64,000 nucleotides of DNA from a phage: the sequence record PZ053912.1. One strand, 5' to 3'. The notes under the pieces are model-generated. The model was not told the origin of the DNA. It worked only from the letters and a program-made list of their open reading frames with translations, and did not search any database. Positions within the stretch are counted from its first letter, which is position 1. The number at the start of each line of letters is the position of its first letter. A program made the position numbers and the translations under genes. This document shows, piece after piece, positions 6,809 through 30,746 of this stretch.

Positions 6809-6811
6809 ATT

Positions 6812-7012: not shown

Positions 7013-7040
7013 TTTGTGTTCCTCATGTTTCAGTAGGACT

Positions 7041-7526: not shown

Positions 7527-7552
7527 GATGTTATCCTCTTTTAGATAGGACT

Positions 7553-7582
7553 ACTATATCATAGTCCTACTTAGTTGTAAAC
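7553..7582 (-). promoter_or_regulatory. early promoter (GTTTACA-N17-TATAGT)
   Basis: Read from sequence. Confidence 0.45.
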
Positions 7583-13009: not shown

Positions 13010-13036
13010 AATTAAAATGAAGCTCCCGAAGGAGCT
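13010..13036 (-). terminator. CUUCGG hairpin (agctcccgaaggagct) downstream of HNH gene
   Basis: Read from sequence. Confidence 0.45.
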
Positions 13037-13833
13037 TAGGACATCCAACACATTTTATAACCTTTGCAGGTTCTGTTAGGATTATTTAATGCTTTCAATA
13101 TATTAGAAGACCCTATATCTAAATACTCCCTTAATTCATAAAGATAGTTAAAATCAATAGTTTCACCTGTTTTTACACTTGTGATTCTTATAGGCCTTCT
13201 TTCATATTTAGATTTATACAACTCTCTAGTCTTAGCTTTAGTTTCTTCTGACCTAGGAGTGTATGGTTTAAATCCTTTTGTTTTAAATGTTTCCATTCTT
13301 GATTTAGTTATTTTATCCTGGTGTTCTTTTGTTTTTACAGGTGCTTTTCGCCCATTCTCCCAAGATAACTTGTTGGCCTGTATTATTTTATCTATTGCTT
13401 CTTGCGTATGAGTTTTACCATAAAATGGATTTAATTCGCCTATACGTTGTGAAGCAATATGTGACATTAATTCTCTTGTTGCTTTAGTATGTTTTTTACC
13501 TTTAAATGGGTTGCCATTTTTAGCAATCCATTCTTTCATAAATCTAGAGTGCTCTTTAGAGAATTCTTGTTTAAGCCAATCATAATCTCTAGAATTTCTA
13601 GCTCCCATGTAAAAAGCTCTAATAGCCATAAGCATAGAACGGTTCTTATGAATTTTATAAAGCAATAAATGGGCGATAAAATGCTCTCTAGGGGTCATTT
13701 TAACTAGATTTGATTTATCATTACTCCCACCCATAGATTTAGGCAAAATATGGTGAGTTTCAGTATAATTAGGAATAGTGCTGCGGTTTTTAGCCGCAGC
13801 GATAAGTTTATCATAAATTTTACGGTAATTCAT
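13036..13833 (-). CDS. free-standing HNH homing endonuclease with NUMOD3-like repeats (Mob-type)
   Basis: HHILPKSMGGSNDKSNLVKMTPREHFIAH HNH motif; repeated NPFKGKKHT / NPFYGKTHT motifs; ATG at 13833 overlapping gp39 stop (TAATG); track start 13848 is TTG. Confidence 0.8.
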   Translation of the reverse strand: MNYRKIYDKLIAAAKNRSTIPNYTETHHILPKSMGGSNDKSNLVKMTPREHFIAHLLLYKIHKNRSMLMAIRAFYMGARNSRDYDWLKQEFSKEHSRFMKEWIAKNGNPFKGKKHTKATRELMSHIASQRIGELNPFYGKTHTQEAIDKIIQANKLSWENGRKAPVKTKEHQDKITKSRMETFKTKGFKPYTPRSEETKAKTRELYKSKYERRPIRITSVKTGETIDFNYLYELREYLDIGSSNILKALNNPNRTCKGYKMCWMS

Positions 13834-15653
13834 TATCCTAGCATCCAATCTTTACGGAGTTCAGGGTCGTTACCCATGAGCATTTCAAATAGTTCTTTCC
13901 AATTTTCAGGAAGTTTAACTACGTCGTACACAGGGTTTTGAATCATTTCTTTATATTCATCCCGCTGAAGTGAGCCCAATCCCTTGATGTATCGAATACT
14001 ATGCTTAGGCAGTGTATCTTTAGCTTCTTCATACTCAGCTACAGTATAAAACCATTTTTGAGTTTTGCCAATTTGTGCAATAATTACAGGCGTTTTAACA
14101 AAGCGAATACGTCCTTGTTCAAACAATTCAGGCCAATTACTAAAGAAAGCAAGCAAAGCCGGATAGATACTTCCAAGACCGTCATGATCGGCATCGGTCA
14201 TAATTGCAATATTACGATAGTTCGTATTCTCTGCCTTTTCACCAAGAATAAGACCTGTGATAGCACAGATATCGAAGAGCTCTTTGTTCTTCATCATATC
14301 GGCATATGACATACCCCAGCTATTCATCACCTTACCACGTAATGGGAATCCGCCGTGTAGTTCACGGTCACGAACATCAATGAGATAACCAATTGCCGAA
14401 TCACCTTCTGTTAAAAACAATGTCGTATCTGCATCTTTACCACATTGGTTAGCTTTAATATGCTTATGAACCTTAGCTTTAGTTGCCTTTTTAGCTGCTT
14501 TAGTTTCTGCAGCCTTTTCTGCTGCCAATTTACGAGCTAATGCTGCTTCAACAATAGGCATAATCAAGGCTTCGTTTTTAAGAAGTGCCTGAGCAATTTT
14601 CTTAGCATCTAATTGGATATGATTACGAATATCACCATACGTTGACGTTAAACGTTCTTTAGTCTGAGAATCAAAACGCATGTTGCTCATGTCTCTAATA
14701 AACATCAACATTGTGAGACATTCTTTAACACGAGCTTTAGTGACTTCAATACCCTTATATTTCTTTTTAATACCGGGCAAAAGATGTTCGCAGATATCAT
14801 CCATTACACATTCAACATGATGACCACCATTTTTAGTATGGATGTTATTCACATAAGTTAAATGACGGAAGCCGTCTGGTGATGTTGTGAATGCTATAGA
14901 GACTTTATCATTTTCTTGAATGATGTTATCTTCGCCAAATTGTTTAGCAAATCGTTTAAAATTACCATCAACTTTTTTACCATTAAATGTGAACTTGATA
15001 TCAGGATAAACGACTGCCAATGTTTGAAGTCGGTCTAAAGTAATATCTAAATAAATTTGAGATAAATTATGCTCTTCAAATGAAGAGAAATCAGGAGTGA
15101 AGATTACTTTGGTGCCTTTACCTTTAGATTTCTTAGAAGACCATGATTTGTTTTCCATTCCGTTTGAACAGTTAACAGTGATTTCATTTTCGCCATCTGA
15201 CGTGATGCCTGTAAACAACGTAGAGAAGATATTAGTTAAACTACTCCCGACGCCGTTCATACCACCAGTCTTGCGTTCAGAGTCATCACCAAAATTACCA
15301 CCAGCCTTTGGAATAGTCCAGGCTGCTACAGGCCCAGGAATTTGTTCACCTGTTTGGTCGGTGACCATTGCTTGAGGAATACCACGTCCGTTATCTTCCA
15401 CCGAAACTTGATTATTTTTAATTTGCACATCAATTTTATTTGCAAACTTAAATGATGTACGAATAGCTTCATCAACCGAGTTGTCAATAATCTCATCGAT
15501 TAATTTAATCAGACCAGGAACATATTCAACTTGTTGATATTTACCAAACAAAAAACGCTCGTGGGCTTCTTTGGCCGAAGAACCAATATACATGCCACTG
15601 CGTTTCTTAATATGTTCTACATCTGACAATACCTTAATTTCATTTTTAATCAT
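13833..15653 (-). CDS. 39: DNA topoisomerase II large (ATPase, GyrB-like) subunit gp39, uninterrupted 606 aa form
   Basis: MIKNEIKVLSDVEHIKKRSGMYIGS..LIDEIIDNSVDEAIR GHKL ATPase; 606 aa equals T4 gp39+gp60 fused, so no separate gene 60. Confidence 0.9.
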   Translation of the reverse strand: MIKNEIKVLSDVEHIKKRSGMYIGSSAKEAHERFLFGKYQQVEYVPGLIKLIDEIIDNSVDEAIRTSFKFANKIDVQIKNNQVSVEDNGRGIPQAMVTDQTGEQIPGPVAAWTIPKAGGNFGDDSERKTGGMNGVGSSLTNIFSTLFTGITSDGENEITVNCSNGMENKSWSSKKSKGKGTKVIFTPDFSSFEEHNLSQIYLDITLDRLQTLAVVYPDIKFTFNGKKVDGNFKRFAKQFGEDNIIQENDKVSIAFTTSPDGFRHLTYVNNIHTKNGGHHVECVMDDICEHLLPGIKKKYKGIEVTKARVKECLTMLMFIRDMSNMRFDSQTKERLTSTYGDIRNHIQLDAKKIAQALLKNEALIMPIVEAALARKLAAEKAAETKAAKKATKAKVHKHIKANQCGKDADTTLFLTEGDSAIGYLIDVRDRELHGGFPLRGKVMNSWGMSYADMMKNKELFDICAITGLILGEKAENTNYRNIAIMTDADHDGLGSIYPALLAFFSNWPELFEQGRIRFVKTPVIIAQIGKTQKWFYTVAEYEEAKDTLPKHSIRYIKGLGSLQRDEYKEMIQNPVYDVVKLPENWKELFEMLMGNDPELRKDWMLG

Positions 15654-15716: not shown

Positions 15717-16142
15717 TTATTTAAATTTAATTTTCTGAAGTGCATCAATTGCAGCCAAACGCCCTTGTTCACTTTTAACTGTAATGACCACATCGCCTGA
15801 TACGATCACCGAACCATCAACAAATTCTATAGAGCCTTTTTTGAAATCGACAGCTGTATCTGGTTCCGGAACTTCTTCAAAAAATTTAAATTCTGCACCA
15901 TAAAGCAGAATATCACCTTGCATACTATGAATAGTTCGGCCATAATCGCCTACGGCTTCTACAGCAATCACCGAAACGCCGTAACCAATCATCTCTTCCG
16001 CAATAAAATCTTTGGACAATAAAGTAGTATGCAGATTAGTATTAAGACGTTTACCAGTCGTATTAAGAATTCTCAAGAAATTATCTTCCTGTCCTTTGAT
16101 AATACGATATTTCTTACCAACTTCAAAACCTTTAAAAGCCAT
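15717..16142 (-). CDS. hypothetical protein (141 aa; size and position compatible with T4 goF)
   Basis: ORF track, ATG start at 16142; immediately downstream of 39. Confidence 0.4.
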   Translation of the reverse strand: MAFKGFEVGKKYRIIKGQEDNFLRILNTTGKRLNTNLHTTLLSKDFIAEEMIGYGVSVIAVEAVGDYGRTIHSMQGDILLYGAEFKFFEEVPEPDTAVDFKKGSIEFVDGSVIVSGDVVITVKSEQGRLAAIDALQKIKFK

Positions 16143-16144
16143 AA

Positions 16145-16324
16145 TTAACCCTTCTTAAGTAAGTCGTAAAAACCGCCGTTCACATGTTTAGGAGCAGAAA
16201 CCCGACGAGTAGACAGACGATGACATTCAGGGCAAACATCGTTTTCTCGTTCAGAAATCCTTTTAATTTTTTCATATTCATGACCACAATCTTCAGATTG
16301 ACATTTATAGTCGTATAACGGCAT
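16145..16324 (-). CDS. small zinc-ribbon protein, FmdB-like (59 aa)
   Basis: Manual translation MPLYDYKCQSEDCGHEYEKIKRISERENDVCPECHRLSTRRVSAPKHVNGGFYDLLKKG; two CxxC-type pairs; AAGGA SD; absent from ORF track (<60 aa). Confidence 0.5.
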   Translation of the reverse strand: MPLYDYKCQSEDCGHEYEKIKRISERENDVCPECHRLSTRRVSAPKHVNGGFYDLLKKG

Positions 16325-16326
16325 TA

Positions 16327-16737
16327 TTATTCCTTAAAATGTGCTTTCAACATTTGATACAAAGACCATGCCTGGTCGTTATTTTCGATAGTAATCGTCA
16401 TCACCGGAAATTCAGACAATTCGTCAAGATCACCAGAATCTTGCTCTTCGGACGCTAGATATGGATTTTCAACTTCGTCAAAGAACTCTGCTTCATTCGT
16501 GGAGAGCCAGATAAAGTTTTCATCAAGGATATCACCGCCTGTTGCGTATCCAACCGTGCCAGTAGATGTCACAATTTTAGTAGGACGACCAAGATGGTCA
16601 ACATCTAATACTTTAAATGGTTCCATGCCAAGCCGTCGTGCATAAATCCCATTATCAGTGTGGTCTTTAATAAACTCTTCTTGGGCACGTTTATCTATAA
16701 ATTGGTACCATGAGTTAACGCGGAATTTATTAGCCAT
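16327..16737 (-). CDS. hypothetical acidic protein
   Basis: ORF track trimmed to ATG at 16737 (TAATG overlap with upstream gene). Confidence 0.45.
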
Positions 16738-16964
16738 TAGTAAGTTTCCTTCCAATAAGTTGTACCGTTTTCAGTGATTTCACGGAAGATACCATAGATA
16801 GGCATTTCATCGCCGAGTTTTTCGTAAACGTAAACCACTTCGGTGTAGCATAAAAATTCGGTCCAGTTTTTCTGTACAACAACTAAATCAGGATTAAACA
16901 GAACATCTTCAAACTCATCGATGTTTGAATCAGTAGTTACGTTTTTAATGATTTGACGTTTCAT
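16737..16964 (-). CDS. hypothetical protein (75 aa from ATG 16964)
   Basis: AGGAG SD before ATG at 16964; track N-terminal extension would run through the promoter. Confidence 0.45.
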
Positions 16965-16993
16965 AATATTCTCCTCTTGTTTTGATAAGTCTA

Positions 16994-17018
16994 TAGTATC
17001 ATAGACCATAGTTGTTGT
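16994..17018 (-). promoter_or_regulatory. early promoter (TGTACA-N17-TACTAT)
   Basis: Read from sequence. Confidence 0.4.
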
Positions 17019-17021
17019 ACA

Positions 17022-17546
17022 TCATTTTAGCAAAATAAAATCAACTTGTTCTGCCAATGAACGTCTAAACATTAATTGACAACTTCCGAGGATGAAATCA
17101 GGTGCTTCATAGACCGCGATGTAGTATCCTTTAGCTTTCAAGAGTTCAACATCCACCTGGTCATCAAACCATGCATAAACCGCGCCAACGCTTTCAAATC
17201 CAAAATAGAACCCTTGAGCCCAATCTTCACTCAATTCAAATGTGTACTCAATTCTATGGTATCTTAAGATATTTTGTTCAAGAAGTTTGTCTTCATTTAC
17301 TGTAGGACGATTAGGGACATTATAGTTGTCGCCGTGATGGTAGAAGTTACCTGAGAGTATTCCATGCTTATCAAGGAACTCCCATGTTTCTTCAGAGTTG
17401 TCAGTGCCAGACCAACCGTAAGGTGAGCGAGGTTCTTTATTCCAAGAGGTTTCCCAAATTCTGACGGCTTTACCGTCTTTGATAGCAATTCCTGGTAATG
17501 ATTCACGTTGAGTACAAAAACTACGTTCTACGCGGTAAACTAACAT
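17022..17546 (-). CDS. hypothetical protein (174 aa)
   Basis: ORF track; ATG with AGGAG SD. Confidence 0.5.
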   Translation of the reverse strand: MLVYRVERSFCTQRESLPGIAIKDGKAVRIWETSWNKEPRSPYGWSGTDNSEETWEFLDKHGILSGNFYHHGDNYNVPNRPTVNEDKLLEQNILRYHRIEYTFELSEDWAQGFYFGFESVGAVYAWFDDQVDVELLKAKGYYIAVYEAPDFILGSCQLMFRRSLAEQVDFILLK

Positions 17547-17552
17547 ATTATT

Positions 17553-17601
17553 CTCCTCTGGTTGATATGGTTATAATATCAAAACCAGAGGAGAAGTAAA
17601 C
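17553..17601 (-). promoter_or_regulatory. early promoter (GTTTAC-N17-TATTAT) with -10 enclosed by perfect 11-bp inverted repeat ctcctctggtt / aaccagaggag
   Basis: Read from sequence. Confidence 0.5.
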
Positions 17602-17605
17602 AACT

Positions 17606-18025
17606 TTATGCGAAAGCAGCTGGGCTATATTTTTTAATTTGGAATTCAGGAACTACCATGAACTGACCAGCGAAAACGATGTTATAAAGCTTAACACCAT
17701 CTTCTACCCAACGGTCGCTAATAAATCCGGCGATTTGCTTAGTTTTCCATGGCGTTCCATCAGTTGCCGCAGCAATAGTGAATTCATGGTCTTTTTCAAC
17801 AGAAACTGATCTGCATAGTCCCCATTTGAACGCTTTTTCTTCTGGCTCAATGAACTGGCTTGAGACGTAGCCAATATTACCATTAGCATCACGAACTTTA
17901 ACTTGGTTACGACCAAAAACCGGATCACTCACAGAAAGAACTTCAACCAGCTTCCCGGCAACTTTAGAGCGAGAAGCAACAGATACATATACGTAATCAC
18001 CTGTAGAGAGATTTACAATATTCAT
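17606..18025 (-). CDS. hypothetical protein, member of tandem paralog trio (139 aa)
   Basis: Shares C-terminal motif GFISD(R/Q)WVEDG.KLYNIVF.G.F.VV with the next two genes. Confidence 0.55.
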   Translation of the reverse strand: MNIVNLSTGDYVYVSVASRSKVAGKLVEVLSVSDPVFGRNQVKVRDANGNIGYVSSQFIEPEEKAFKWGLCRSVSVEKDHEFTIAAATDGTPWKTKQIAGFISDRWVEDGVKLYNIVFAGQFMVVPEFQIKKYSPAAFA

Positions 18026-18034
18026 AATAATTCC

Positions 18035-18490
18035 TTAAGCTTTACGAGGAGACACATAGCGAGTGATTTCAGATTCTTTAACAACTCGGAAGTCACCTAA
18101 GAATACGATATTGTATAACTTTTCACCATCTTCAACCCATTGGTCACTGATGAAGCCGCACATAATATCAGTTTTGTTTGGATAACCATATTCGTCGATG
18201 AAATCAAATTCTTTATCAGTCCGGAATTCAACGCCTTTGCAAAGGGCCCATTTGAACTGTACATTAGGTTCAGTAGAAGCAAAATGAGCGCTCACATGAG
18301 TTTCCAAGAATTTAGGACTTACGTAAGCGTACTGAGTTTCAGTTTTTCCAGAACTAGGAATGATTCGAACTTTAACTTCTTTAACACGTCCAGTACCATT
18401 AGTACGAAGTCCTACCACTTCAACTAGACGACCTGCAGCTTTAGAACGAGATGCAGACGATACACGCTTAATTTCACCAATAGTAATCAT
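18035..18490 (-). CDS. hypothetical protein, tandem paralog (151 aa from ATG 18490)
   Basis: As above; track start 18553 trimmed to internal ATG. Confidence 0.5.
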   Translation of the reverse strand: MITIGEIKRVSSASRSKAAGRLVEVVGLRTNGTGRVKEVKVRIIPSSGKTETQYAYVSPKFLETHVSAHFASTEPNVQFKWALCKGVEFRTDKEFDFIDEYGYPNKTDIMCGFISDQWVEDGEKLYNIVFLGDFRVVKESEITRYVSPRKA

Positions 18491-18520
18491 AATTTCTCTC
18501 TCTTTGTTTAAATTGAATTC

Positions 18521-18550
18521 ATTATACTCCATCCATCCTTGGATGTACAA
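18521..18550 (-). promoter_or_regulatory. early promoter (TTGTACA-N17-TATAAT), attatactccatccatccttgg cassette
   Basis: Read from sequence. Confidence 0.45.
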
Positions 18551-18552
18551 CA

Positions 18553-19047
18553 TTAATTAAGGATATTAACCACAGCACTACGTGGAACTACACTAAAATC
18601 ACCTGCATGAACAACGTTCAGAAGTTCAACACCGTCTTCAATCCACTGATCAGTTACCCATCCATTTACTGGACCTGCGAACGGACGTCGAATTGAAACA
18701 TATTTACACAACAAATCAGTAGGCTCAATAGGCTTAATCAGAGTACCGTACATACAAGCGATATCCATATCAATACAGATATCTTTAACGGGTTCTACTT
18801 CTTCAATCAACAGTTCAAAGTCGGTGCTTGGAAGGGCGGTAGTAGAAATTGTACCATATGAATTTTTAATTTCTAAGAATAACCAAGGGCCTTCAACTTG
18901 TTTGATGAAGTTAACAATAGTGAAACTATTACCTTGAGTGGCACCTAAAATTTCACAAAACTTTTCATAAGCTCGCACTGAAGCACCGTACCAGTTGATT
19001 TGTTTTTCATCTTTCAGGATGTAAGTAGCCGTTGTATTGATATTCAT
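18553..19047 (-). CDS. hypothetical protein, tandem paralog (164 aa from ATG 19047)
   Basis: C-terminal GWVTDQWIEDGVELLNVVHAGDFSVV; AGGAAA SD; track start 19089 is TTG. Confidence 0.5.
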   Translation of the reverse strand: MNINTTATYILKDEKQINWYGASVRAYEKFCEILGATQGNSFTIVNFIKQVEGPWLFLEIKNSYGTISTTALPSTDFELLIEEVEPVKDICIDMDIACMYGTLIKPIEPTDLLCKYVSIRRPFAGPVNGWVTDQWIEDGVELLNVVHAGDFSVVPRSAVVNILN

Positions 19048-19077
19048 AATGTTTTCCTGTTTGGTTAAGATAGAAAG

Positions 19078-19107
19078 ATTATACTCCAACCATCCTTGGT
19101 TGTAAAC
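19078..19107 (-). promoter_or_regulatory. early promoter (GTTTACA-N17-TATAAT) within 46-bp cassette repeated at 60172-60217
   Basis: Read from sequence. Confidence 0.5.
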
Positions 19108-19112
19108 TGGTT

Positions 19113-19790
19113 TTATCGCTGTTTTACACTTAACAGGTCAGGATTCTCAGGGACATCTTCAAGGCCAAGCGCATAACGCTGAGCATATTTTAACATCAAA
19201 ATATCTTTAGCACAATCGTGAATACTATCATGGGCAACGAATCCTTTTAGCGTACCCATCGGTAATGGACACATACTTAATCCTCGTGTCAACGAGTAAG
19301 CTTCGATTGCTGTACGAATATCACGTTGAGCCCAGAATTTAACTGGTTCTAATTTATCAGTATCAATATCTGGTTCAAGAACACCTTCATCACGATAGAG
19401 GTCACGAATCAAATCGACCAAGATCGGGAAGTCAAAGCTCATACCACGGCACCACATCTGTGATTTCCATTGGTCAACTTTATTAGCTCGACAATAATCT
19501 AAAAAGATTTTAATGCCTTCAAGCGTAGTGACATCGTCTTCAGACGGAGTCAAGTTTTTACGCGCTTCTGCTGATTGTTCTTTCCACCATTTCATAGTGG
19601 ATTTAGCGAAAACTCGCTTCCCTTTCTGAGAAGCTAAATTAAATTTAATTCGCTTACCTCGTTGAACAAGTTCTTCAAATGATTCAACAACTTCTGGGTC
19701 GGAATTATATGCAATAACCGCAAGGTCAATAACAGCCGCTTTTGATGTATTGCCGAATGTTTCAAAATCTATAATAACATCAGTGCTCAT
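19113..19790 (-). CDS. dexA: exonuclease A (DEDDh 3'-5' exonuclease)
   Basis: 225 aa (T4 227); N-terminal IDFETFG exonuclease motif; upstream of dda as in T4. Confidence 0.85.
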   Translation of the reverse strand: MSTDVIIDFETFGNTSKAAVIDLAVIAYNSDPEVVESFEELVQRGKRIKFNLASQKGKRVFAKSTMKWWKEQSAEARKNLTPSEDDVTTLEGIKIFLDYCRANKVDQWKSQMWCRGMSFDFPILVDLIRDLYRDEGVLEPDIDTDKLEPVKFWAQRDIRTAIEAYSLTRGLSMCPLPMGTLKGFVAHDSIHDCAKDILMLKYAQRYALGLEDVPENPDLLSVKQR

Positions 19791-19799
19791 AATTTTCTC

Positions 19800-21113
19800 T
19801 CAAATAAAATGGACGTCAAACCGGCCACGAGTTGTGCCGACATACAATAACTGTTTAGCTAATTCTGAATCGGCATAATGGATACATGGTGTATAAACAA
19901 AGGCCGTGTCAACAGACATACCCTGGGCCTTATGGAAGGTTGATACTGGTAGTGCCTTCACCTTAGTGAACATACGTTTAGCATCCCAGAATTCGCTCCA
20001 TGGAGCTTTACCACCTTTATTCCAGAATTTGTATGTTTCTGCTGTCTTAGCCAAAAACAAATTGAATTTATAAAGCTCTTCTTCAGAAGAAATAACCTTT
20101 ATATCTTCACGGATGTATTCTTCATCATCCCCATATGTTTCTACTGTAAGATTCCAATATCGTATCATATATTCGCCCGAAACACCACGTGCTTTAACGA
20201 ATGTAGACGTTTCTACAGCATCTCGAATACGAACGAATTGCCCGTTATTGAAAAGCATTTCGGTCATATTTTTACCATCTAGCTTATATGTCTTAGTAAA
20301 TGGCTCTTGTAGAACAATGACTTCGTCTTTAATAAATGGTTTTTCTGTTTCAAGAAGTTTTCGGCGAATAATTGAATTTAACTTGTCCACCGACTTATTT
20401 GTGAATGCCATCATTCGATTTTCGAAAAGGTCTTCAGGAGTTTTAACGACGTTAAAATAGTTCATCATATACGATTTAAGGTCTGTATATCCATGAACAC
20501 CATGCCCATCAACTACTTTATCGTAAATCCATTTGCCATTACGAATATCAGTAGCAACATCAATAATTGGTGCATTGCTACGTTTAACTTCTGTAAGGTT
20601 GCATTGCACGAAGTCTTTGTGAGTGAAGAAAGGACTTAGATATGCAGTTGATTCGCCTGGGTCTACCGGACGAATCTGGCACCGGTCGCCGATTCCAATT
20701 ACTGTACACCATTTAGGGATACTAGCTAACATTATTTTAAACAGAGAACGGTCGCACATTGACGCTTCATCAAATAACAGTACACGGCACAAGGCTAAGT
20801 CGGGAACCTTTTTCTGTTCAAACAATACGTTTTCTTCGTATGTAGTTGGGTTGATTTTAAGAATGCTATGAATAGTCGATGCTTCTTGACCCGCAAGTTT
20901 GCTTAGAACCTTTTTAGCGGCATGTGTAGGGGCTGCTAAAATAATACCTGATTCTCCAGAAGAAATAAGGGCTTCAACGATGAATCTAGTAAGGGTTGTT
21001 TTACCTGTACCAGCAGGCCCATTAATAGTTACGTGATGTTTCTTTTCTTTAATAGCGTTCATAACAACGTTGAAGGCGTTTTTCTGGCCTTCAGTCAAAT
21101 CATCAAATGTCAT
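19800..21113 (-). CDS. dda: Dda DNA helicase (SF1B)
   Basis: 437 aa; MTFDDLTEGQKNAFN.., GPAGTGKTT Walker A, matches T4 Dda. Confidence 0.9.
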   Translation of the reverse strand: MTFDDLTEGQKNAFNVVMNAIKEKKHHVTINGPAGTGKTTLTRFIVEALISSGESGIILAAPTHAAKKVLSKLAGQEASTIHSILKINPTTYEENVLFEQKKVPDLALCRVLLFDEASMCDRSLFKIMLASIPKWCTVIGIGDRCQIRPVDPGESTAYLSPFFTHKDFVQCNLTEVKRSNAPIIDVATDIRNGKWIYDKVVDGHGVHGYTDLKSYMMNYFNVVKTPEDLFENRMMAFTNKSVDKLNSIIRRKLLETEKPFIKDEVIVLQEPFTKTYKLDGKNMTEMLFNNGQFVRIRDAVETSTFVKARGVSGEYMIRYWNLTVETYGDDEEYIREDIKVISSEEELYKFNLFLAKTAETYKFWNKGGKAPWSEFWDAKRMFTKVKALPVSTFHKAQGMSVDTAFVYTPCIHYADSELAKQLLYVGTTRGRFDVHFI

Positions 21114-21421
21114 CGTAAAGTCCCTGCAATTGGAATACTAACAATACGGCCTGTATCCAGGATTCGTTGATACAATTTTTGCGTCTCCGCATCTAGTTTA
21201 ATGTGTTTCATTTCAAGCTTATTAAACCAGAACTTACGCGGAGTTTCGACCATTCTTAGAACTCCCATTTTTAAATCTGTTTTATACTGTGTTTTCAAAG
21301 TATCGAAAACTTTATCTGCAATATCCTTTCTAAAAAATACTGCAGGACGATGCTCATCAAGTGGAACTGGGACAGTAAATCCTTCCATATCTCGATAAAC
21401 TATTGCATATACATAAACCAT
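21110..21421 (-). CDS. dda.1: hypothetical protein (dda.1 position)
   Basis: ORF track 103 aa; ATGA overlap with dda. Confidence 0.5.
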   Translation of the reverse strand: MVYVYAIVYRDMEGFTVPVPLDEHRPAVFFRKDIADKVFDTLKTQYKTDLKMGVLRMVETPRKFWFNKLEMKHIKLDAETQKLYQRILDTGRIVSIPIAGTLR

Positions 21422-21423
21422 AA

Positions 21424-22170
21424 TTAACCTTTAATCAGTTGGAATAATGATGCGCTAAGTGGTAAGCCACGTTTCAATTTTAATTTACCAATGAAACCAA
21501 TCTTTTCAAAACGTTGCAGACCTTGGATAACTTTATCATATGTATCGAAAAGCGATTCAGCGTCAGTTAATTTAGTTTTAGTTTTCCAGTCAGAGCCTTT
21601 AAGAAGAACGTTGAGTTTAGTAAGTTCATGACCTTCTGCTTGATGTGAGCCATTAATGCGTGCTTTCAAAGCAACAATTCTAAGTTTAGATTCGTTAGAT
21701 AAAGGTTGATTTTTCATCATGTTCGCCATATGCTTAACACGATTTTCACGTTTTGCTCGGATTTTTAAAATAGTACCATAAACCTTTTTAATTTGGGCCC
21801 ATTTCTTCTCGTCGAGATTAAGTTTCTCTACTTTACGGGCAGAAGGATTAGCGATACGTCTTGCAATGGCATCACGTTTTTCAATAAGTTCTTCTAATGT
21901 TAAATCAGAACGAGCCGTGTTATATTTTTTCTTAACTGGGATAACATTACCTTTAATGTAGCCGATATCGTTATTAAAACGTTCTAAGGATAATTTCTCA
22001 CCTTCAACAGAGTTATTGAAAGATTCACCTGAGTAAGCGCAGACCTTTTGATCAAGAATGTTTTTAAGGTAATTAAAATCTAAGTTAAAATCCTTAGAGC
22101 GTCTCTTCGCAGAAGCTCTGGTGTGGTCAAGACGACGATTGATTTTGTTAATTTTATTATTTGATAACAT
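21424..22170 (-). CDS. hypothetical basic protein (size and position compatible with T4 srd)
   Basis: ORF track 248 aa; synteny only. Confidence 0.4.
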   Translation of the reverse strand: MLSNNKINKINRRLDHTRASAKRRSKDFNLDFNYLKNILDQKVCAYSGESFNNSVEGEKLSLERFNNDIGYIKGNVIPVKKKYNTARSDLTLEELIEKRDAIARRIANPSARKVEKLNLDEKKWAQIKKVYGTILKIRAKRENRVKHMANMMKNQPLSNESKLRIVALKARINGSHQAEGHELTKLNVLLKGSDWKTKTKLTDAESLFDTYDKVIQGLQRFEKIGFIGKLKLKRGLPLSASLFQLIKG

Positions 22171-22219
22171 AATATTTTCCTCTGTCTTACGGACGTTAGG
22201 TCATTTATCTGATAGGTCT

Positions 22220-22248
22220 ATAATATCATGCCCTCAGGTAGTGTACAC
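22220..22248 (-). promoter_or_regulatory. early promoter (TGTACA-N17-TATTAT), ataggtctataat cassette
   Basis: Read from sequence. Confidence 0.45.
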
Positions 22249-22321
22249 TCTTTTTCATAAAATGCTTTAATTTTTTATGTGTTATAATGGTTCTGAGTTC
22301 CATTCGGTTATTCCAATTCAG

Positions 22322-22930
22322 TCAGTAACTGACAATAGACAGATTCCAGATTGTATAACGTCCATCCTGAATAATAGAATCTACACGCAGTGTAGTCCCT
22401 ATAGGGAGCATAAATTCACATTCGTCGGATATAAGTCTAGCATTAGACCGTCTTGTCGCTTCAGGGAAAGCTCCATTGAACTCACAAGATGGCGCAGCCA
22501 GAATCATGTTAAGCATATGTTCACGGAAGTTGAAAGCAAATGGTGCATCTTTGATGCAGAACATAGTAAATGTTCCGTAAAAATTATACGAAGCAAAGTT
22601 ACGTGCTACACCGAACACTGGGCTGAAGCTCATTACTCTGTCAAATTTAATAATACTACCAATGCCTTTATCATCGAGTGTGGCCATAGTTTTCTTAGAG
22701 ATTCCACGATACATTGTCTCAGGAACAGAAGACGTCCAATTTCTACGAACAATTGCACTTAAATCTTGTTGGATGCTATCAGGCTTGTTTTCCATACACT
22801 GCCACAGTACACTTTGTTCAATGTCGCTGAATTGACTATCAATTTCGTACTGCAATACATCTTGATATTCGGGGTTTTGAGCACGACGAACCATTTCTTC
22901 AATTTCACATTCATTATACGGCATAAACAT
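22322..22930 (-). CDS. modA: ADP-ribosyltransferase, ModA/ModB family
   Basis: 202 aa; R-S-ExE signature (MYRGIS, SFSP, ECEFMLP); position as T4 modA/modB. Confidence 0.7.
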   Translation of the reverse strand: MFMPYNECEIEEMVRRAQNPEYQDVLQYEIDSQFSDIEQSVLWQCMENKPDSIQQDLSAIVRRNWTSSVPETMYRGISKKTMATLDDKGIGSIIKFDRVMSFSPVFGVARNFASYNFYGTFTMFCIKDAPFAFNFREHMLNMILAAPSCEFNGAFPEATRRSNARLISDECEFMLPIGTTLRVDSIIQDGRYTIWNLSIVSY

Positions 22931-22958
22931 TTAGGTTTCTCCTGTGGTTGATAAAAGT

Positions 22959-22987
22959 ATAGTATCATCGTCAGTAGAGTTTGTACA
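22959..22987 (-). promoter_or_regulatory. early promoter (TGTACA-N17-TACTAT)
   Basis: Read from sequence. Confidence 0.4.
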
Positions 22988-23277
22988 CTAAAAATTCAAC
23001 ATTTTCAAATGAATGATTTTGTTAGGTATTCGCGTTCTTGAAGTTCAGATTGACATGTCATGATAGACCTCCATTTAAAGATAAGCCTATCATAACACGA
23101 GAGGAGGGAATGTAAACTACTTTTTAAGCTTTCCTACTAAAGGTCCATCAGGACCTGGTTGTTCTAACATGAATAATGATGCTTTAAAAAGCAATGCCAA
23201 CCCTTTCACCATTCGATACCATGTCTCAAAGTCTTTTTCCTTGATTTCTAGTAAGAATTTCTCTTTAAATTTCTCTT

Positions 23278-23466
23278 TCATTTCCAAGGACTCCATGGTG
23301 GAGGGTCGTCATAATAAGAGGCAAGGTCTTTCAGGGCTTCAACAGGTAAACTAAAGCCGTGTCGTTGTATAATACTATCTAGTTCATCAATAAGTTCACT
23401 ACGATGCACTTTAGGAGCCTCAACTTCAGGCTCATCAAACATACTCATCAAGTCCATATTATTCAC
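23278..23466 (-). CDS. hypothetical acidic small protein
   Basis: ORF track 62 aa. Confidence 0.35.
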   Translation of the reverse strand: MNNMDLMSMFDEPEVEAPKVHRSELIDELDSIIQRHGFSLPVEALKDLASYYDDPPPWSPWK

Positions 23467-23923
23467 CGAGATAAAAACTAGCAGGTTCAGAGAATGTTTC
23501 TAGTGCTACACCTTTTGTCTTAAAAAATTTCCAAATAGCTCGTTGCAAATGGGTTAAATCTGCTAATGATGTAATAAAGTATTTTTTAGCAAAATACTTA
23601 TGGTCTCGCTTTTCAAACAGGTCTAAACGCTTTTCTGGATTCACATAAACTGCATTTTCCGTAGATTCATAACCTAAGTCCTTTATGCCTTCTTCAAGAC
23701 TAAACGGAGAATTTTTAGAATGAGTAATAGCTCCAACTCGCTCTACACGAATTTTGTAACCTTTAGGAATCTGCAATTTGCAGAATTCTTCTACGATATA
23801 TTGCGGATTATTTAGACTTTTGTTAATGAGAATAGCTATTTCTAGTGGAGTCTTATCTTCTACTGGTATATGTTTAAACGACTTGGCTTCAAGCAAATAC
23901 ATTTTAAATAACATAGCATCCAT
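23459..23923 (-). CDS. hypothetical protein (154 aa; mrh-region position)
   Basis: ORF track. Confidence 0.45.
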   Translation of the reverse strand: MDAMLFKMYLLEAKSFKHIPVEDKTPLEIAILINKSLNNPQYIVEEFCKLQIPKGYKIRVERVGAITHSKNSPFSLEEGIKDLGYESTENAVYVNPEKRLDLFEKRDHKYFAKKYFITSLADLTHLQRAIWKFFKTKGVALETFSEPASFYLGE

Positions 23924-24098
23924 TACAATTTCCTCGATGGTTCACCCATATAAAGTTTTACAATACGTTCGCCTTCATCTTCGATGAGCTTCTCTTCGTG
24001 TTTCTGGAATTCTTTAGCCATATTCTCTTCAAGAACATCCAGCCAATCTTCTGGACCGACACCATCGTCCCAGCTTTTAAACCATTTAACTATCTTGT

Positions 24099-24300
24099 TC
24101 ATTCGCAGCTCCCTGAGCTTGAATCACAATCAGAATAACTTGACCCAGAATCACCAGACCAAGACGATACGTATGAATGATTATAATCGGAAGAGCTTGA
24201 AGCATTAACCTGTTTTGTTTTTGGACGAACAACTTCTTCCATCATTCCGTCGCCGATATATTCCCAACTTTTTTCGTGTGTATCAGGAATCGGCATCATA
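24099..24300 (-). CDS. small protein with Ser/Asp-rich C-terminal tail (66 aa from ATG 24300)
   Basis: AAGGT SD; tail SSSSDYNHSYVSSWSGDSGSSYSDCDSSSGSCE. Confidence 0.35.
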
Positions 24301-24312
24301 CCTTCGCCTGGT

Positions 24313-24540
24313 TTAACAGCAAACAACTTCTTCAGCATCGTAAGCATTAATTGTTCCTCGAACAAAACGAACACCACCGTCATCCCAACGGATTTCGGCA
24401 TTAAATTTGACGTCTTCACCATCCATCATGAACGAGTGTACGACTACGTCATCATAATATCCAAGGCCGTATTTCAACGAAACTTCTTGAGCAATCAAAG
24501 CACCTAATGTGTTATTAGGTTTAATCCAACGATTTAACAT
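24313..24540 (-). CDS. hypothetical protein (75 aa from ATG 24540)
   Basis: AGGAG SD; promoter-like cassette just upstream. Confidence 0.4.
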   Translation of the reverse strand: MLNRWIKPNNTLGALIAQEVSLKYGLGYYDDVVVHSFMMDGEDVKFNAEIRWDDGGVRFVRGTINAYDAEEVVCC

Positions 24541-24568
24541 ATTGTTCTCCTCTTGAGTAAGTAAGAAT

Positions 24569-24598
24569 ATCTTAACACAGTTTTTAGTGGTTGTAAAC
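24569..24598 (-). promoter_or_regulatory. promoter-like element (GTTTACA-N17-TAAGAT)
   Basis: Read from sequence. Confidence 0.35.
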
Positions 24599-24599
24599 T

Positions 24600-24630
24600 G
24601 TAGAAACAAAAAAGGAATCCCGAAGGATTC
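24600..24630 (-). terminator. CUUCGG hairpin (ggaatcccgaaggattcc) plus U6 run downstream of soc
   Basis: Read from sequence. Confidence 0.6.
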
Positions 24631-24640
24631 CTTAAATTAT

Positions 24641-24877
24641 TTAACCACTTACTGGTGTAGGGGTAAACATTGCAGCGTTCTTAGTTTTCCAATCAGCGGC
24701 ATCAGAAACTACAGTAGAATATGCTGCCTTTTCTGACGGAAAGATTTGATAATGAGAATCTGCAATACGATGTTCGTTTGAATAAATCTCAAACGGTACA
24801 GAAACTTCCATACCTTTAACTTCTTTACCTTCACCAGCAGGATGCGTAAAGGTTTTGATGTTTACATAACCACCCAT
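24641..24877 (-). CDS. soc: small outer capsid protein Soc
   Basis: 78 aa; GYVNIKTF.., HYQIFPSEKAAYSTV match T4 Soc. Confidence 0.85.
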   Translation of the reverse strand: MGGYVNIKTFTHPAGEGKEVKGMEVSVPFEIYSNEHRIADSHYQIFPSEKAAYSTVVSDAADWKTKNAAMFTPTPVSG

Positions 24878-24908
24878 AATAAACTCCTTTGTTGTTTAAT
24901 TACAGGTG

Positions 24909-24916
24909 TATTTATA
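24909..24916 (-). promoter_or_regulatory. late promoter TATAAATA (minus strand) upstream of soc
   Basis: Exact box about 32 nt upstream of soc ATG. Confidence 0.6.
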
Positions 24917-24918
24917 AC

Positions 24919-25200
24919 TTACAATTTGGCGGCTTGGACTGCTTTATTGGCTTCAGTCATTTTAGCTAGATTTTCAGCAGTAGGATTGGCAATGTATTCG
25001 GCTGTAGCTTGAGCAAAAACATTATGAGTTTCGATTACATTTTTAGCATTTTCAGTATTCATATCAATTTCTTGTTTAGATAAATTTTTTAGTTGATTGG
25101 CTAAGAGTTCTACAAAGATTTCAACATTAGCGTTTTCAATTATAGCATTAATATGCTTCTTACGAGCTTTCTTAAGTTGACGTTTATTTAAACGAGCCAT
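24919..25200 (-). CDS. hypothetical protein (93 aa)
   Basis: ORF track. Confidence 0.45.
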   Translation of the reverse strand: MARLNKRQLKKARKKHINAIIENANVEIFVELLANQLKNLSKQEIDMNTENAKNVIETHNVFAQATAEYIANPTAENLAKMTEANKAVQAAKL

Positions 25201-25721
25201 TAATAACCTCGGTCTTGGCGAGCAAAGTTCTCGGCATTTTTCAGGTAATACAGTTTAAAGATTTCTTCTGCTGTCAGACCAAGACCATGGAACATATTCA
25301 GAACAAAGTGCAGAATATCAATCATTTCGAATTTAATTTCGAGCTGGTCTTCAGGAGACAAATCGTTAATCAGGGTTTCACGACGTTCAGCATGTTGAGC
25401 TTTCCAAGGCTTCCATACAGCGCTCGCATCTTTTTCGCCATTGCTCATGCCACCAAGAGAAGTCAGAAGTTCGCGGAATTCATCATCAATATAATCTTTC
25501 TGATTACGCAGCCAATCAACAACATCGCCAGCAGTGGCTAATTCATCAGGATGTTTGTTATGTTCAGGCTTGTCATTTGCCAGACGAACCTGTAAAGATT
25601 TCTGCATATCAAGCATTACCTGCAGAGGGTCTTTATCTTCATGAATCAGAGCATTAAAATAAGCTTCTTCTGCTTTATCAACACCAGAAATAAGTTGTGA
25701 ACATTCGTTAAAGTGTGCCAT
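25200..25721 (-). CDS. 56: dCTPase/dUTPase gp56 (MazG-like)
   Basis: Start trimmed to ATG 25721 (MAHFNEC..) with AAGGA SD; size and sequence resemble T4 gp56. Confidence 0.8.
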   Translation of the reverse strand: MAHFNECSQLISGVDKAEEAYFNALIHEDKDPLQVMLDMQKSLQVRLANDKPEHNKHPDELATAGDVVDWLRNQKDYIDDEFRELLTSLGGMSNGEKDASAVWKPWKAQHAERRETLINDLSPEDQLEIKFEMIDILHFVLNMFHGLGLTAEEIFKLYYLKNAENFARQDRGY

Positions 25722-25811
25722 TATTTTTCCTTTCAATTCAGTATAAGAGAAGTTAATTCTAACATTAATTTTATAAAGCGTAATAAATAATAAGGTAACT
25801 AAGGAGATATT

Positions 25812-26009
25812 ATGTTTAAACTTCCATCGTTAATCAACGCTATTAAAGGCAATAAAAAGAAAACTGCTATCGCTGCAATAGTTGTAGGTGGCATTATTTC
25901 ATGGAACTTCGTGGTTGCGCCATTGTTAGTTGCCCATGGTATTATAGTTCCTTCTGTTCCATTGGATACTGTAGTTGATTTAGCCTTTGCTATTATAGGG
26001 CTTGTCTAA
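25812..26009 (+). CDS. small hydrophobic protein on the opposite strand (65 aa)
   Basis: Strong AAGGAG SD 5 nt upstream of ATG 25812; lies in a gap between 56 and 61. Confidence 0.4.
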   Translation: MFKLPSLINAIKGNKKKTAIAAIVVGGIISWNFVVAPLLVAHGIIVPSVPLDTVVDLAFAIIGLV

Positions 26010-27028
26010 ATCTTAGAATAACGAGATAATCTCATTTTAGCATGCAACCCACTTGAAATATTCTGTTTCATATATTCTAAAATTTCTTGTGGTGTTGCAT
26101 TTTCTTTCATTACCATATCATTCACATCCTTTGATCTCCATGGAGCTCGGTCCCAGAACATAACACGTTCGCCTGCATCAACTAATCGCTTCATGCGAGC
26201 TATAGTATCCGGATGCCTAGGTTCATTATCCATTACCCATACCCGACGTTCTTTAAATGGTACCACATCTAAATCTATTGAGCCGCCTGTAATAGCGATT
26301 GCATTGGGTATGAATAAACTATCAATAGGGCCTTCCATTACCCAGACGTCTCCTTCCTTAACACGTTCAACACCATAAATTTTTGTTGCAGACTCAAACG
26401 CTTTAATAGTGATATATTTCTGAGGAGCATCTTTACGAAGTGCACGTCCTTGGAATGACTCGGCCTTCCCATCTTTATTAAAAATAGGAATCACTAAACG
26501 TGGTTCGGGAATCTCTTTCTTATACGTACCAGGTTGAATCTTGTTGACCAATTTAGGCCATTCTAATGTGAACCATAATCTGTTCCACGATTCTTTAGGA
26601 ATACACCGAGACTTAACATATTTCACAATAGGATGCTCTTCGGGCAGCTTGTCCAGACGAGAACAAGACGGCAAAGAATTTATAGTCTTTTTCTCCGGTT
26701 CCGGTTTATGTTCAGGAACCTTTTCAATCTTTGGTTCCATTCTAGCTTTTTCTTTACGAACTTCCATTAGATATTCGCGATAAAGCTCTTCATCATACTC
26801 TTTTAAGTATCCGGAAATTGTATTGTGGTATTGACAATTATAGCAATGTACATTACCAGGAGTACCGCCATAATACCATCCACGAGCTTTCATTGCATCT
26901 GTCTGGGAGTCGCCACAAACTGGACAACGAAATGTTAATTTAAATGTACTTGAATTATTGATTTGTCTAAAACGAGGTAGGTGAGAAAACGCACGATAAG
27001 CAAATTCATTATCTATCCATTCAGCCAT
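26006..27028 (-). CDS. 61: DNA primase gp61
   Basis: 340 aa (T4 342); zinc finger CPVCGDS..CYNC; TOPRIM region. Confidence 0.9.
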   Translation of the reverse strand: MAEWIDNEFAYRAFSHLPRFRQINNSSTFKLTFRCPVCGDSQTDAMKARGWYYGGTPGNVHCYNCQYHNTISGYLKEYDEELYREYLMEVRKEKARMEPKIEKVPEHKPEPEKKTINSLPSCSRLDKLPEEHPIVKYVKSRCIPKESWNRLWFTLEWPKLVNKIQPGTYKKEIPEPRLVIPIFNKDGKAESFQGRALRKDAPQKYITIKAFESATKIYGVERVKEGDVWVMEGPIDSLFIPNAIAITGGSIDLDVVPFKERRVWVMDNEPRHPDTIARMKRLVDAGERVMFWDRAPWRSKDVNDMVMKENATPQEILEYMKQNISSGLHAKMRLSRYSKI

Positions 27029-27067
27029 AGTATTCTCCAGAGGCCTTAAATTAATAAGGCCATCATA

Positions 27068-27535: not shown

Positions 27536-27554
27536 AGGTACCTCCTGAGTATAT

Positions 27555-27752
27555 TTAATCAATTACAAAGATTGCTTTGTCACCATTTATATCCGTGACT
27601 TCATATGTAGTGCCTTCATACTGTGGAATATTCCAAATTACACCATCATTAGCTTTTACGCTAATATGGCATTGGTGTTTTGAAACAACTTCATAATCTT
27701 CAAAACTTGTAAAAACACTAATTTTAGAACCCGTGCAAATTGCAATAGTCAT
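27555..27752 (-). CDS. hypothetical protein (65 aa)
   Basis: ORF track. Confidence 0.45.
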   Translation of the reverse strand: MTIAICTGSKISVFTSFEDYEVVSKHQCHISVKANDGVIWNIPQYEGTTYEVTDINGDKAIFVID

Positions 27753-27753
27753 T

Positions 27754-30745: not shown

Positions 30746-30746
30746 A

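Follow-up and report, generated by a model that had tools for sequence, protein, structure and literature searches.

We analysed a 64,000-nucleotide (nt) stretch of phage DNA (record PZ053912.1; the window in what follows) in which short, hairpin-forming early-promoter cassettes recur between genes, with a focus on one that lies 17.6 kb into it between a motB-like gene (17606-18025; Pfam motB) and motB.2 (17022-17546). The ca. 2 kb around this site are 99% identical to the Escherichia phages FP43 and vB_EcoM_SA79RD, i.e., RB69-like T-even phages of the genus Mosigvirus. The window has a G+C content of 35-39%, carries almost every gene on its minus strand, and is collinear with RB69 over the stretch that begins at rIIA, includes nrdC, and extends further. 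A preliminary description of this DNA had proposed that many of its early promoters have their -10 region bracketed by inverted repeats and recall the promoter-early stem-loop (PeSL) cassettes of some T4-type phages.

The flagged cassette (17544-17601, minus strand) corresponds to the RB69 early promoter Pe:7443 and reads, along the minus strand, GTTTAC-TTCTCCTCTGGTT-ttga-TATTAT-aaccatatc-AACCAGAGGAGAA-taat-ATG. Its -35 element GTTTAC (17601-17596) is directly followed, within the spacer, by a 5' arm (TTCTCCTCTGGTT; 17595-17583) that is complementary to the Shine-Dalgarno (SD) motif and hence called anti-SD below. The -10 element TATTAT (17578-17573), a predicted transcription start near 17566, and a 3' arm (AACCAGAGGAGAA; 17563-17551) that holds the SD motif GAGGAG at 17558-17553 come next, followed by the ATG at 17546-17544. 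The two arms form a stem of 13 base pairs (bp) continued by an inner 6-bp stem, and the RNA has a minimum free energy of -23.9 kcal/mol (z -7.3) that none of 200 dinucleotide shuffles matched. The cassette at 30226-30283 (minus strand; RB69 Pe:20537), between the homologues of RB69 ORF041c and ORF040c, is built in the same way, with its -35 at 30283-30278, a 5' arm TTCTCCAGTAGTTG at 30277-30264, the -10 element TATTAT at 30260-30255, a predicted start near 30248, a 3' arm CAACTACTGGAGAA holding the SD motif GGAG at 30246-30233, and the ATG at 30228-30226. Here the stem TTCTCCAGTAGTTG/CAACTACTGGAGAA comprises 14 bp (-21.7 kcal/mol, z -5.5). At both sites TTCTCC paired with GGAGAA, i.e., anti-SD with SD, forms the base of the helix, and the predicted start precedes the last nucleotide of the 3' arm by 15 nt with the 5' arm in the spacer, so that the promoter lies inside the hairpin.

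These two belong to a set of 24 minus-strand early-promoter cassettes of the form (G)TTTAC/TGTAC-N16-17-TAnnnT in the window, which were called with a relaxed pattern scan and manual curation for the order -35, 16-17 nt, -10, SD, and ATG. All 24 carry what reads as a sigma70-like early promoter, and the exact motif GTTTAC-N15-19-TATAAT occurs four times in the window against 0.13 expected. At least 15 of the 24 coincide with RB69 early promoters that Nolan et al. predicted in 2006 with a hidden Markov model (positions converted through BLAST offsets), a study in which hairpins and inverted repeats go unmentioned. A literature search for T4 or RB69 start sites, Term-seq, or earlier work on the structure of the denV leader found nothing usable. 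The cassettes are all intergenic, fill the ca. 60-nt gaps that separate two genes on the same strand, and end on their 3' side with an SD motif and ATG, 26-49 nt past the -10 element.

A clear stem overlapping the promoter is present in 16 of the 24 cassettes (named by position from here on), and the stems take one of three layouts. Layout A stems lie wholly within the spacer and do not bracket the -10 element (19106, 60214, 61210, and 18549). Layout B stems bracket it, with the end of the 3' arm between -2 and +4 nt of the predicted start (62851, 52373, 52073, 6808, 28757, 7581, 7069, and 17021, the last of which is also listed among the cassettes lacking a convincing stem). Layout C places the SD motif or start codon within the 3' arm (17600, 30282, 53321, 23116, and, weakly, 30716), and pairing of SD or start codon in transcripts started upstream is predicted at the first four of these. 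The positions of the arms vary among cassettes, and the loops measure 4-30 nt. The four inverted repeats quoted in the preliminary description were all found in their places on the minus strand, most of them longer than quoted. Its bracketed -10 region is a feature of many cassettes but not of the four layout A stems or of the eight promoters without a stem. Its view that the palindrome is confined to DNA or read-through RNA fits the promoter geometry: every cassette has its 5' arm upstream of the predicted start, so that RNA made from the promoter itself cannot fold the hairpin, which leaves read-through RNA and DNA as the molecules that can.

The observation itself is real and beyond chance. 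The 62-nt cassette folds have a mean z of -2.29, compared with -0.11 at 65 chance promoter-like sites in the same window (Mann-Whitney p=2.6e-6) and -0.16 in 193 tiled windows (p=1.9e-6). A permutation control that keeps composition and shared motifs, by pairing each spacer with its own or other cassettes' downstream segments, gave a similar answer: spacers pair with their own downstream segment at -11.4 kcal/mol on average and with mismatched partners at -7.9 kcal/mol, a difference equalled in 0 of 20000 permutations (p<5e-5). An Rfam 15 scan of the whole window returned no match reaching a gathering score.

What these stems conserve became clear from relatives of the flagged subtype. A scan of IMG/VR for GTTTACTTCTCC-N26-42-GGAGAA gave 38 distinct matches, among which the real-looking cassettes extend the helix inward by 10, 8, 8, 8, 8, 7, 5, or 3 bp with sequences that all differ. 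For covariation we used 17 distinct TTCTCC..GGAGAA arm pairs from the window and IMG/VR phage contigs, with real arms and a fixed linker. All eight pairs that the search pattern leaves free had changed on both sides, and the covariation score was 0.264 compared with 0.086 +/- 0.020 for shuffled pairs (reached by 0 of 500) and 0.03-0.08 when partners were slid. The inner arms read, by locus, ggtttgacat, tgtagatg, tcttttct, tctagttg, agtagttg, tctggtt, and tcatg. This anti-SD/SD subfamily was found in Mosigvirus and Dhakavirus genomes and in IMG/VR contigs; JS98 motB.2 carries TTCTCCTCATG/CATGAGGAGAA, and phiR1-RT pairs ATCTCC with GGAGAT. Near-variants exist in a Klebsiella phage of the genus Jiaodavirus, whose two-tier helix is related but sits among unrelated genes, and in T4 itself between ipII and denV (TCTCCTGTAG/CTACAGGAGA; -18.0 kcal/mol, z -4.1). 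The orthologues were collected with blastn and the DNA pattern scan; a MotB.2 protein search of viral contigs had given three near-identical loci only. In the T4-type phage RB27, positions 1480-1553 hold a 13-bp stem ATCAGTAGTTGAT/ATCAACTACTGAT around a TACTAT -10 box; its arm sequence is almost that of the window's 30.2 kb cassette, but there the SD motif lies outside the helix, i.e., the stem module stands in another register to the SD.

Arms that differ while their complementarity is kept indicate that base-pairing itself is under selection, and this rules out a shared protein operator. The idea that the palindromes are operators for a dimeric DNA-binding protein seated across the -10 element, e.g., an unidentified factor for early-promoter shut-off, is accordingly extremely improbable, even though a palindrome centred on the -10 element is the classic layout of a repressor operator and the shut-off of T4 early promoters is described as incompletely understood (PMC3014915). 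A common recognition sequence is missing, with arms that covary from promoter to promoter and orthologue to orthologue rather than being conserved; arm positions and loop lengths vary as described above, and a third of the promoters lack the palindrome altogether. We rejected the operator on these grounds.

The strength of the stems follows the neighbouring gene upstream. Among TTCTCC..GGAGAA families whose inner extension reaches 3 bp or more, nine of nine place GTTTAC at -1 to 4 nt from the upstream stop codon, compared with two of seven among families extended by 0-2 bp (Fisher ca. 0.005), and three unextended cassettes from two of these seven families have a canonical terminator in the gap. 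The same dependence appears among 57 non-redundant cassettes outside the search pattern, which fold at -12.6 kcal/mol (z -2.5) when the -35 element is at most 12 nt from the upstream stop and at -8.0 kcal/mol (z -1.0) otherwise (Mann-Whitney p=0.0007 and 0.007; Spearman 0.41, p=0.0013). Cassettes behind a canonical terminator fold more weakly (-7.0 vs -10.9 kcal/mol, p=0.02). The ORF040c cassette illustrates this within one locus: it has its 14-bp stem where it directly follows another open reading frame (ORF), as in the window and RB69, and a stem of 6 bp or none where it sits behind the gene 41 terminator, as in LF82-5, JS98, phiR1-RT, and MN01. The preliminary description had missed the anti-SD pairing at the helix base, the restriction of strong stems to promoters that abut the upstream gene, and the lack of a T-run behind any of the stems. 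At 24612-24633, a perfect 9-bp hairpin of UUCG type (AAGGAATCC-TTCG-GGATTCCTT), which a terminator scan lists on both strands and which has a T-run on the minus strand only, lies directly upstream of the early promoter 24597, itself a promoter without an in-promoter stem.

A stem whose strength depends on the transcription and translation arriving from a neighbouring gene is most simply a read-through RNA element, and this dependence on upstream context has no obvious fit to a promoter-intrinsic or recombination-site function in DNA. The helix therefore likely acts in RNA. Direct strand evidence for this is weak: over 63 cassettes, sense folds beat antisense folds after composition correction (z -1.72 vs -1.23, Wilcoxon p=0.007), and the stems at 23116 and 7069 need several G.U pairs.

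The nearness of the stop codon also invites an explanation by translational coupling, in which a ribosome ending at the upstream stop would melt the helix base and briefly expose the SD, keeping downstream translation in step with the upstream gene. The geometry of the nine extended families suits it, given that a stop codon -1 to 4 nt from GTTTAC places the anti-SD arm 6-10 nt past the stop and that it is precisely the helix base that is paired with the SD. As known from ribosome footprints, 6-10 nt past a stop codon is the edge of a terminating ribosome's reach. However, with 13-14 bp plus an inner stem, the melting of 0-4 basal pairs would leave the GG of the SD paired, and genes that own strong promoters have no obvious need for coupling. 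We thus regard coupling as very unlikely.

We instead consider it reasonably probable that the hairpin, formed in read-through RNA, marks the boundary between two genes and, in the subtype of the flagged cassette, also silences translation of the downstream gene on that RNA. The spacer between -35 and -10 is the sole stretch of the promoter free of sequence constraint and the sole room in these compact gaps; having evolved complementarity to sequence past the -10 element, it would now provide the 5' arm of a hairpin at the gene boundary. RNA from an upstream promoter that crosses the boundary would hold both arms and form a stable hairpin, whereas RNA from the cassette's own promoter, starting inside or just past the hairpin, would lack the 5' arm and stay open. 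For the SD-free layouts A and B, the hairpin would more probably act on the upstream message, as a 3' barrier or an attenuator, and take the place of the canonical terminator that precedes promoters where the gap is wide enough. As repeated and similar sequences, the cassettes may double as homology patches for gene loss or swap.

In the subtype GTTTAC-TTCTCC...GGAGAA-N4-6-ATG, the downstream gene would be translationally silent on read-through RNA. The joint probability that the SD is unpaired is ca. 0 in read-through RNA of the 17.6, 30.2, and 53.3 kb cassettes and rises to 0.235 (17.6 kb), 0.03 (30.2 kb), and 0.28 (53.3 kb) in RNA from their own promoters; none of 30 controls with shuffled upstream sequence is as low at 17.6 kb or at 30.2 kb. 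Several layout A or B cassettes show equal SD accessibility in long and short RNA. The same pairing may bear on RegB, a nuclease whose target in early SD regions is GGAGRAYARAA and whose activity structure inhibits (PMC1702504), so that GGAG motifs within stable structure are spared. The RB69 regB is active, and the 17.6 kb SD region GGAGAATAATA fits this consensus at 10 of 11 positions by our own count. The GGAG of read-through RNA would be shielded from RegB by its structure, so that the short RNA would be both translatable and RegB-sensitive and the long RNA neither. Protein synthesis would then be tied to the gene's own early promoter and end when early promoters are shut off. More tentatively, the anti-SD subfamily could thus be a switch that admits a gene's own promoter only: delayed-early or middle read-through RNA would stay silent and RegB-resistant, and the short immediate-early RNA alone would be translated and then destroyed by RegB.

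Several results speak against the gene-boundary hairpin with SD burial. A convincing stem is lacking in eight of the 24 cassettes (59240, 29498, 29068, 24597, 22987, 22247, 17021, and 4499), and 23116 has kept a strong stem despite a predicted RB69 terminator just upstream. All transcription starts, on which the difference between long and short RNA hinges, are predictions based on the geometry of the promoters. SD burial does not hold for the cassettes at large: the SD pairs with a partner from before the start in 16 of 63 cassettes compared with 12.75 expected from spacer shuffles (p=0.13), in a conservative test that excluded matches to the search pattern and with them the two best cases of the window, and read-through SD accessibility compared with shuffled-upstream controls reaches p=0.06 only. 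SD burial as a property of all cassettes was dropped on the count of 16 and is kept for the TTCTCC..GGAGAA subfamily alone. The strand comparisons are not uniformly in favour of RNA, with 5 G.U against 9 A.C in the covarying arms, where wobble pairs do not favour the sense strand, with sense and antisense energies that are alike when only the window is considered (p=0.56), and with single-stranded DNA folds that are equally significant on either strand. The homology-patch role likewise finds no enrichment: by our own count from pairwise BLAST, ca. 3 of 16 breakpoints relative to RB69 and LNA2 are near cassettes, no more than expected for intergenic positions. Finally, the stem-loop of PeSL211/210 from RB49/phi1 cut lacZ expression as much as the rrnB T1 terminator did (PMC2839356), which makes termination without an obvious T-run conceivable.

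This last finding supports reading the stems as terminators or attenuators of upstream transcription, as was first proposed for PeSLs, which would limit the pile-up of transcription from successive strong early promoters and whose inclusion of the SD would be an incidental recruitment of G/C-rich sequence. A terminator substitute accounts as well as our favoured model does for strong stems where no canonical terminator precedes and weak ones where it does, and stems that bracket the -10 element end their 3' arm at the start site and leave the SD free. The annotators of SA79RD labelled the 17.6 kb hairpin a rho-independent terminator (WebGeSTer, TransTermHP). That label appears doubtful on sequence, however, given that the stems run out into TAATATG (17.6 kb), CAAAATG (30.2 kb), ATCTAAAA, and similar tails rather than a T-run, and that loops of 8-30 nt are far longer than usual for intrinsic terminators. 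None of the cassette stems is among the 14 terminator-like sites in 16000-31500, and the TransTerm list of RB69 is without any cassette stem although it does list true terminators just upstream of several other early promoters. We rejected an intrinsic terminator on these sequence features. An incidental SD is likewise hard to reconcile with the nine of nine extended families in which the covarying inner arm abuts GGAGAA and a loop of 17-30 nt is tolerated to reach the SD. The lacZ assay, for its part, reports expression and not RNA 3' ends and cannot separate termination from effects on translation or stability. Taken together, we judge termination or attenuation as the main role unlikely, though it deserves to be taken seriously.

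Some of the cassettes also coincide with genome rearrangements. The largest direct-repeat families of the window (D1-D4 and D8) all are cassettes, and similar cassettes flank single genes at 7069/7581 (83% identity over 54 nt), 18549/19106, and 60214/61210. Further apart, 19078-19107 and 60186-60215 share 30 nt of identical promoter sequence over a distance of 41 kb, and 6758-6813 and 52023-52078 are 88% identical over 56 nt at 45 kb; both direct repeats are long enough to matter for T4-type recombination. In the Mosigvirus phi25-307, motB.2 is absent and the gap between motB and cef holds a chimeric cassette whose 5' half GTTTACTTCTCCTCT is that of the 17.6 kb cassette and whose 3' half TACTATagacctatcaaaacaAGAGGAGAAtattATG is that of the window's cef cassette, with a 9-bp anti-SD/SD stem retained. 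LF82-5 lacks ORF041c, and homology resumes within the cassette. In Tequatroviruses, the match to the window ends where the 17.6 kb cassette begins, and homology with other genera breaks off at cassette edges in the comparisons with RB27, JS98, LF82-5, and T4. Homology with T4 stops at the -35 element of the 7581 cassette in the denB-ndd region, for which a PeSL-linked T4/PST exchange has been reported by Comeau et al. (PMC4122927). For T4 and a Klebsiella phage, the match is restricted to the cassette itself. Cassettes thus serve as recombination junctions; a preference for them is not statistically supported, and we dropped an enrichment of indel breakpoints at cassettes, the ca. 3 of 16 being no better than the share of gene boundaries that have a cassette.

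Such junctions raise the possibility that the repeats act in DNA, as single-stranded hairpins or cruciforms that the recombination machinery (endonuclease VII or a dedicated recombinase) would see as sites of excision and insertion of PeSL mini-circles, somewhat like the attC sites of integrons. Mini-circles with junctions inside PeSLs were indeed detected by Arbiol et al., who speculated on a stem-binding protein (PMC2839356). The chimeric cassette at a gene loss, the homology breaks at cassette edges, and the near-identical cassettes 41-45 kb apart all fit this idea, as do stems that are mostly perfect Watson-Crick helices without a sense-strand wobble excess and DNA folds that are equally good on both strands. 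However, a DNA recombination site offers no obvious reason for the nearness of the stop codon, the dependence on terminators, or the anchoring to the SD. The sense-strand advantage over the 63 cassettes and the stems that rely on several G.U pairs point away from DNA as well. In addition, comparison with RB69 and LNA2 shows mostly indels that arose through microhomology at a distance from the stems (modB, gp61.4, and several others are microhomology deletions), and junctions fall at varied points of the cassettes with no fixed position in the stem. A primary function in DNA is therefore quite unlikely in our view, and we return to the boundary hairpin in read-through RNA as the preferred reading.

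Some differences between these genomes lie beside cassettes or away from them. In LNA2 (near its position 20110), a deletion between short ATTTC repeats has removed the gp61.4 homologue (29522-29726 in the window); it stops 24 nt upstream of the imm.1 promoter, i.e., beside a cassette without being mediated by it. An insertion of ca. 800 bp at 13036-13848 (minus strand), between the ORF003c homologue and gene 39, is absent from RB69 and LNA2 and encodes a 270-amino-acid protein that, given its NUMOD3 and weak HNH matches, is probably a homing endonuclease of the free-standing kind. The segment 24916-25198, flanked by soc and gene 56, is replaced relative to RB69 and inserted relative to LNA2 and contains an ORF for 93 amino acids (24919-25200) without a Pfam match.

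The other cassettes, all on the minus strand, show how the same elements are arranged elsewhere. Layout C includes a two-tier helix at 53263-53322 (TCCTC..TAGATG / CATCTA..GAGGA) in which the SD is paired. The RB69 gene gp55.6 (RB69 43691-43945) is absent from the window, and the cassette is joined at its ATG to the ORF079c homologue; compared with RB69, gp55.6 has been excised precisely with its promoter cassette retained. In the modB-promoter cassette (23059-23117; RB69 Pe:13466), several G.U pairs contribute to the helix between the -10 region TATGATAGGC and the SD/ATG region GGTCTATCATG. Compared with RB69 and LNA2, 504 nt are missing from modB in frame with a junction at ca. 23018-23022 in the microhomology ACAAA, and this strong cassette now drives an 18-codon remnant alone (ORF from 23061). 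Judging from its genome, the phage probably lacks the ModB ADP-ribosyltransferase. The cassette 3' of the gene 41 terminator (30656-30717; RB69 Pe:20971), with a TransTerm terminator directly upstream, has a weak 7-bp anti-SD/SD stem (TTCCTCT/AGAGGAA) with a 30-nt loop.

Among layout B cassettes, 52311-52374 has a 10-bp stem ACGATAGGAA/TTCCTATCGT around the -10 element whose 3' arm ends at ca. +4, with the SD outside the stem. The cassettes at 52005-52074 and 6733-6809 are near-duplicates (family D8) that share an 8-bp stem TGAGAGCA/TGCTCTCA around the -10 element, the 3' arm of which ends at the predicted start in the 6.8 kb copy. At 7010-7070, the stem GTAGGA/TCCTAC has six Watson-Crick pairs, or 11 pairs when three G.U are counted. 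The cassette after denB (7524-7582) has a stem TAGGACTA/TAGTCCTA reaching to the predicted start, and the one upstream of sp (28697-28758; RB69 Pe:19020) has a stem GGACTA(T)/(G)TAGTCC around its -10 element. In the cassette at 62794-62852 (families D3 and D4), the spacer AGGTCTAT pairs with ATAGACCT just past the -10 element; its downstream half recurs in the 30.2 kb cassette, where the spacer pairs with another part of it. On the plus strand, TTTACC-N18-TATAAT at 62799-62828 is the mirror image of this palindromic cassette and probably no real promoter.

Layout A is represented at 19045-19107 by a 6-bp spacer stem, CAACCA-agga-TGGTTG (family D2), whose promoter recurs at 60155-60215, as a copy of the 19.1 kb promoter with 30 identical nt and the spacer stem, and at 61153-61211, as a spacer-stem copy with TGTACA as its -35 element. 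The cassette at 18488-18550 has the spacer stem CATCCA-agga-TGGATG, which differs from that of the 19.1 kb copy by a compensated switch from A-T to T-A.

If our reading is correct, these hairpins keep adjacent early genes independent in a packed T-even genome despite promoters that read into one another, and the spacer of a promoter doubles as the 5' arm of an RNA structure at the gene boundary. The anti-SD subtype would be a simple, cis-encoded way of restricting protein synthesis to the first minutes of infection, and it would join early-promoter architecture, hairpins that sequester ribosome-binding sites, and the target choice of RegB, which have so far been unconnected. The near-variant at T4 denV makes the hypothesis directly testable in a model phage. 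On the practical side, annotation pipelines label such hairpins as rho-independent terminators, which is probably wrong, and the cassettes mark likely junctions of gene shuffling in therapy phages.

The closest known elements are the PeSLs, defined as a strong sigma70-like early promoter plus a stem-loop, which in RB49/phi1 lies mostly between -35 and -10 or overlaps the -10 element (Arbiol 2010, PMC2839356). PeSLs have been described in three other T4-like lineages (T4/PST and KVP40/nt-1 by Comeau et al. 2014, PMC4122927), with their authors anticipating that they would prove general, and PeSL-type cassettes in a Mosigvirus are thus to be expected. The likeness proposed in the preliminary description is supported, and the window's elements appear to fall within the PeSL definition as far as sequence can tell. 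They bring an early promoter together with a stem-loop in a short intergenic gap ending in an SD and start codon, with stems placed as in most RB49/phi1 PeSLs. Moreover, they recur as related copies that flank small genes and make up the top repeat families, with homology breaks and a chimeric cassette at gene gains and losses. They differ in several respects. The Mosigvirus (RB69-like) lineage is outside the pairs described so far. The RB49 stems consist of G-runs and C-runs and the T4/PST stems lie just upstream of the promoter, whereas those of the window are A/T-rich, diverse in sequence, and without a T-run. None of the five published positional subclasses has an SD-containing helix, and neither paper mentions ribosome binding or translation (words that are absent from the 2010 paper, PMC2839356). 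A preferential location at indels lacks statistical support in the window, and terminator activity and mini-circles have been shown experimentally for RB49/phi1, whereas the window's cassettes are known from their sequence only. The anti-SD/SD subfamily with its strong covariation and its dependence on the neighbouring gene appears to be a modest novelty, and earlier remarks on it in the subscription literature are possible.

Two further systems are instructive. The terminator-plus-promoter composites of RB69 and RB49 (Nolan et al. 2006) likewise place a hairpin beside an early promoter at the boundary of two genes on the same strand, but these hairpins are short and GC-rich with a tetraloop and T-run and lie outside the promoter, whereas those described here overlap the promoter, have long loops, and lack a T-run. 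In-promoter hairpins occur just where such composites are absent. For T4 e, soc, 49, and I-TevI, long transcripts bury the SD and the promoter lies inside the hairpin (PMC3014915, section 29), and hairpins that sequester the ribosome-binding site around an internal promoter are also known for segB and for mobE of Aeh1 (PMC3014915, PMC2988022). All these known cases are late genes according to Edgell et al. (PMC2988022). The window's anti-SD cassettes are predicted to share their logic: long upstream transcripts would put the SD and/or AUG into a helix, and transcripts of the promoter within the hairpin DNA would lack the 5' arm and be translatable. The internal promoters at 17.6 and 30.2 kb are, however, of the -35/-10 early type and not of the late type TATAAATA at a late gene, and the spacer between -35 and -10 holds their 5' arm, unlike in the T4 cases. 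The late (gp55) promoters of e, soc, 49, and I-TevI delay expression, whereas an early sigma70-type promoter in the same position would confine it to the immediate-early phase. If so, the anti-SD cassettes described here would mirror what the hairpins of the late genes e, soc, and 49 do.

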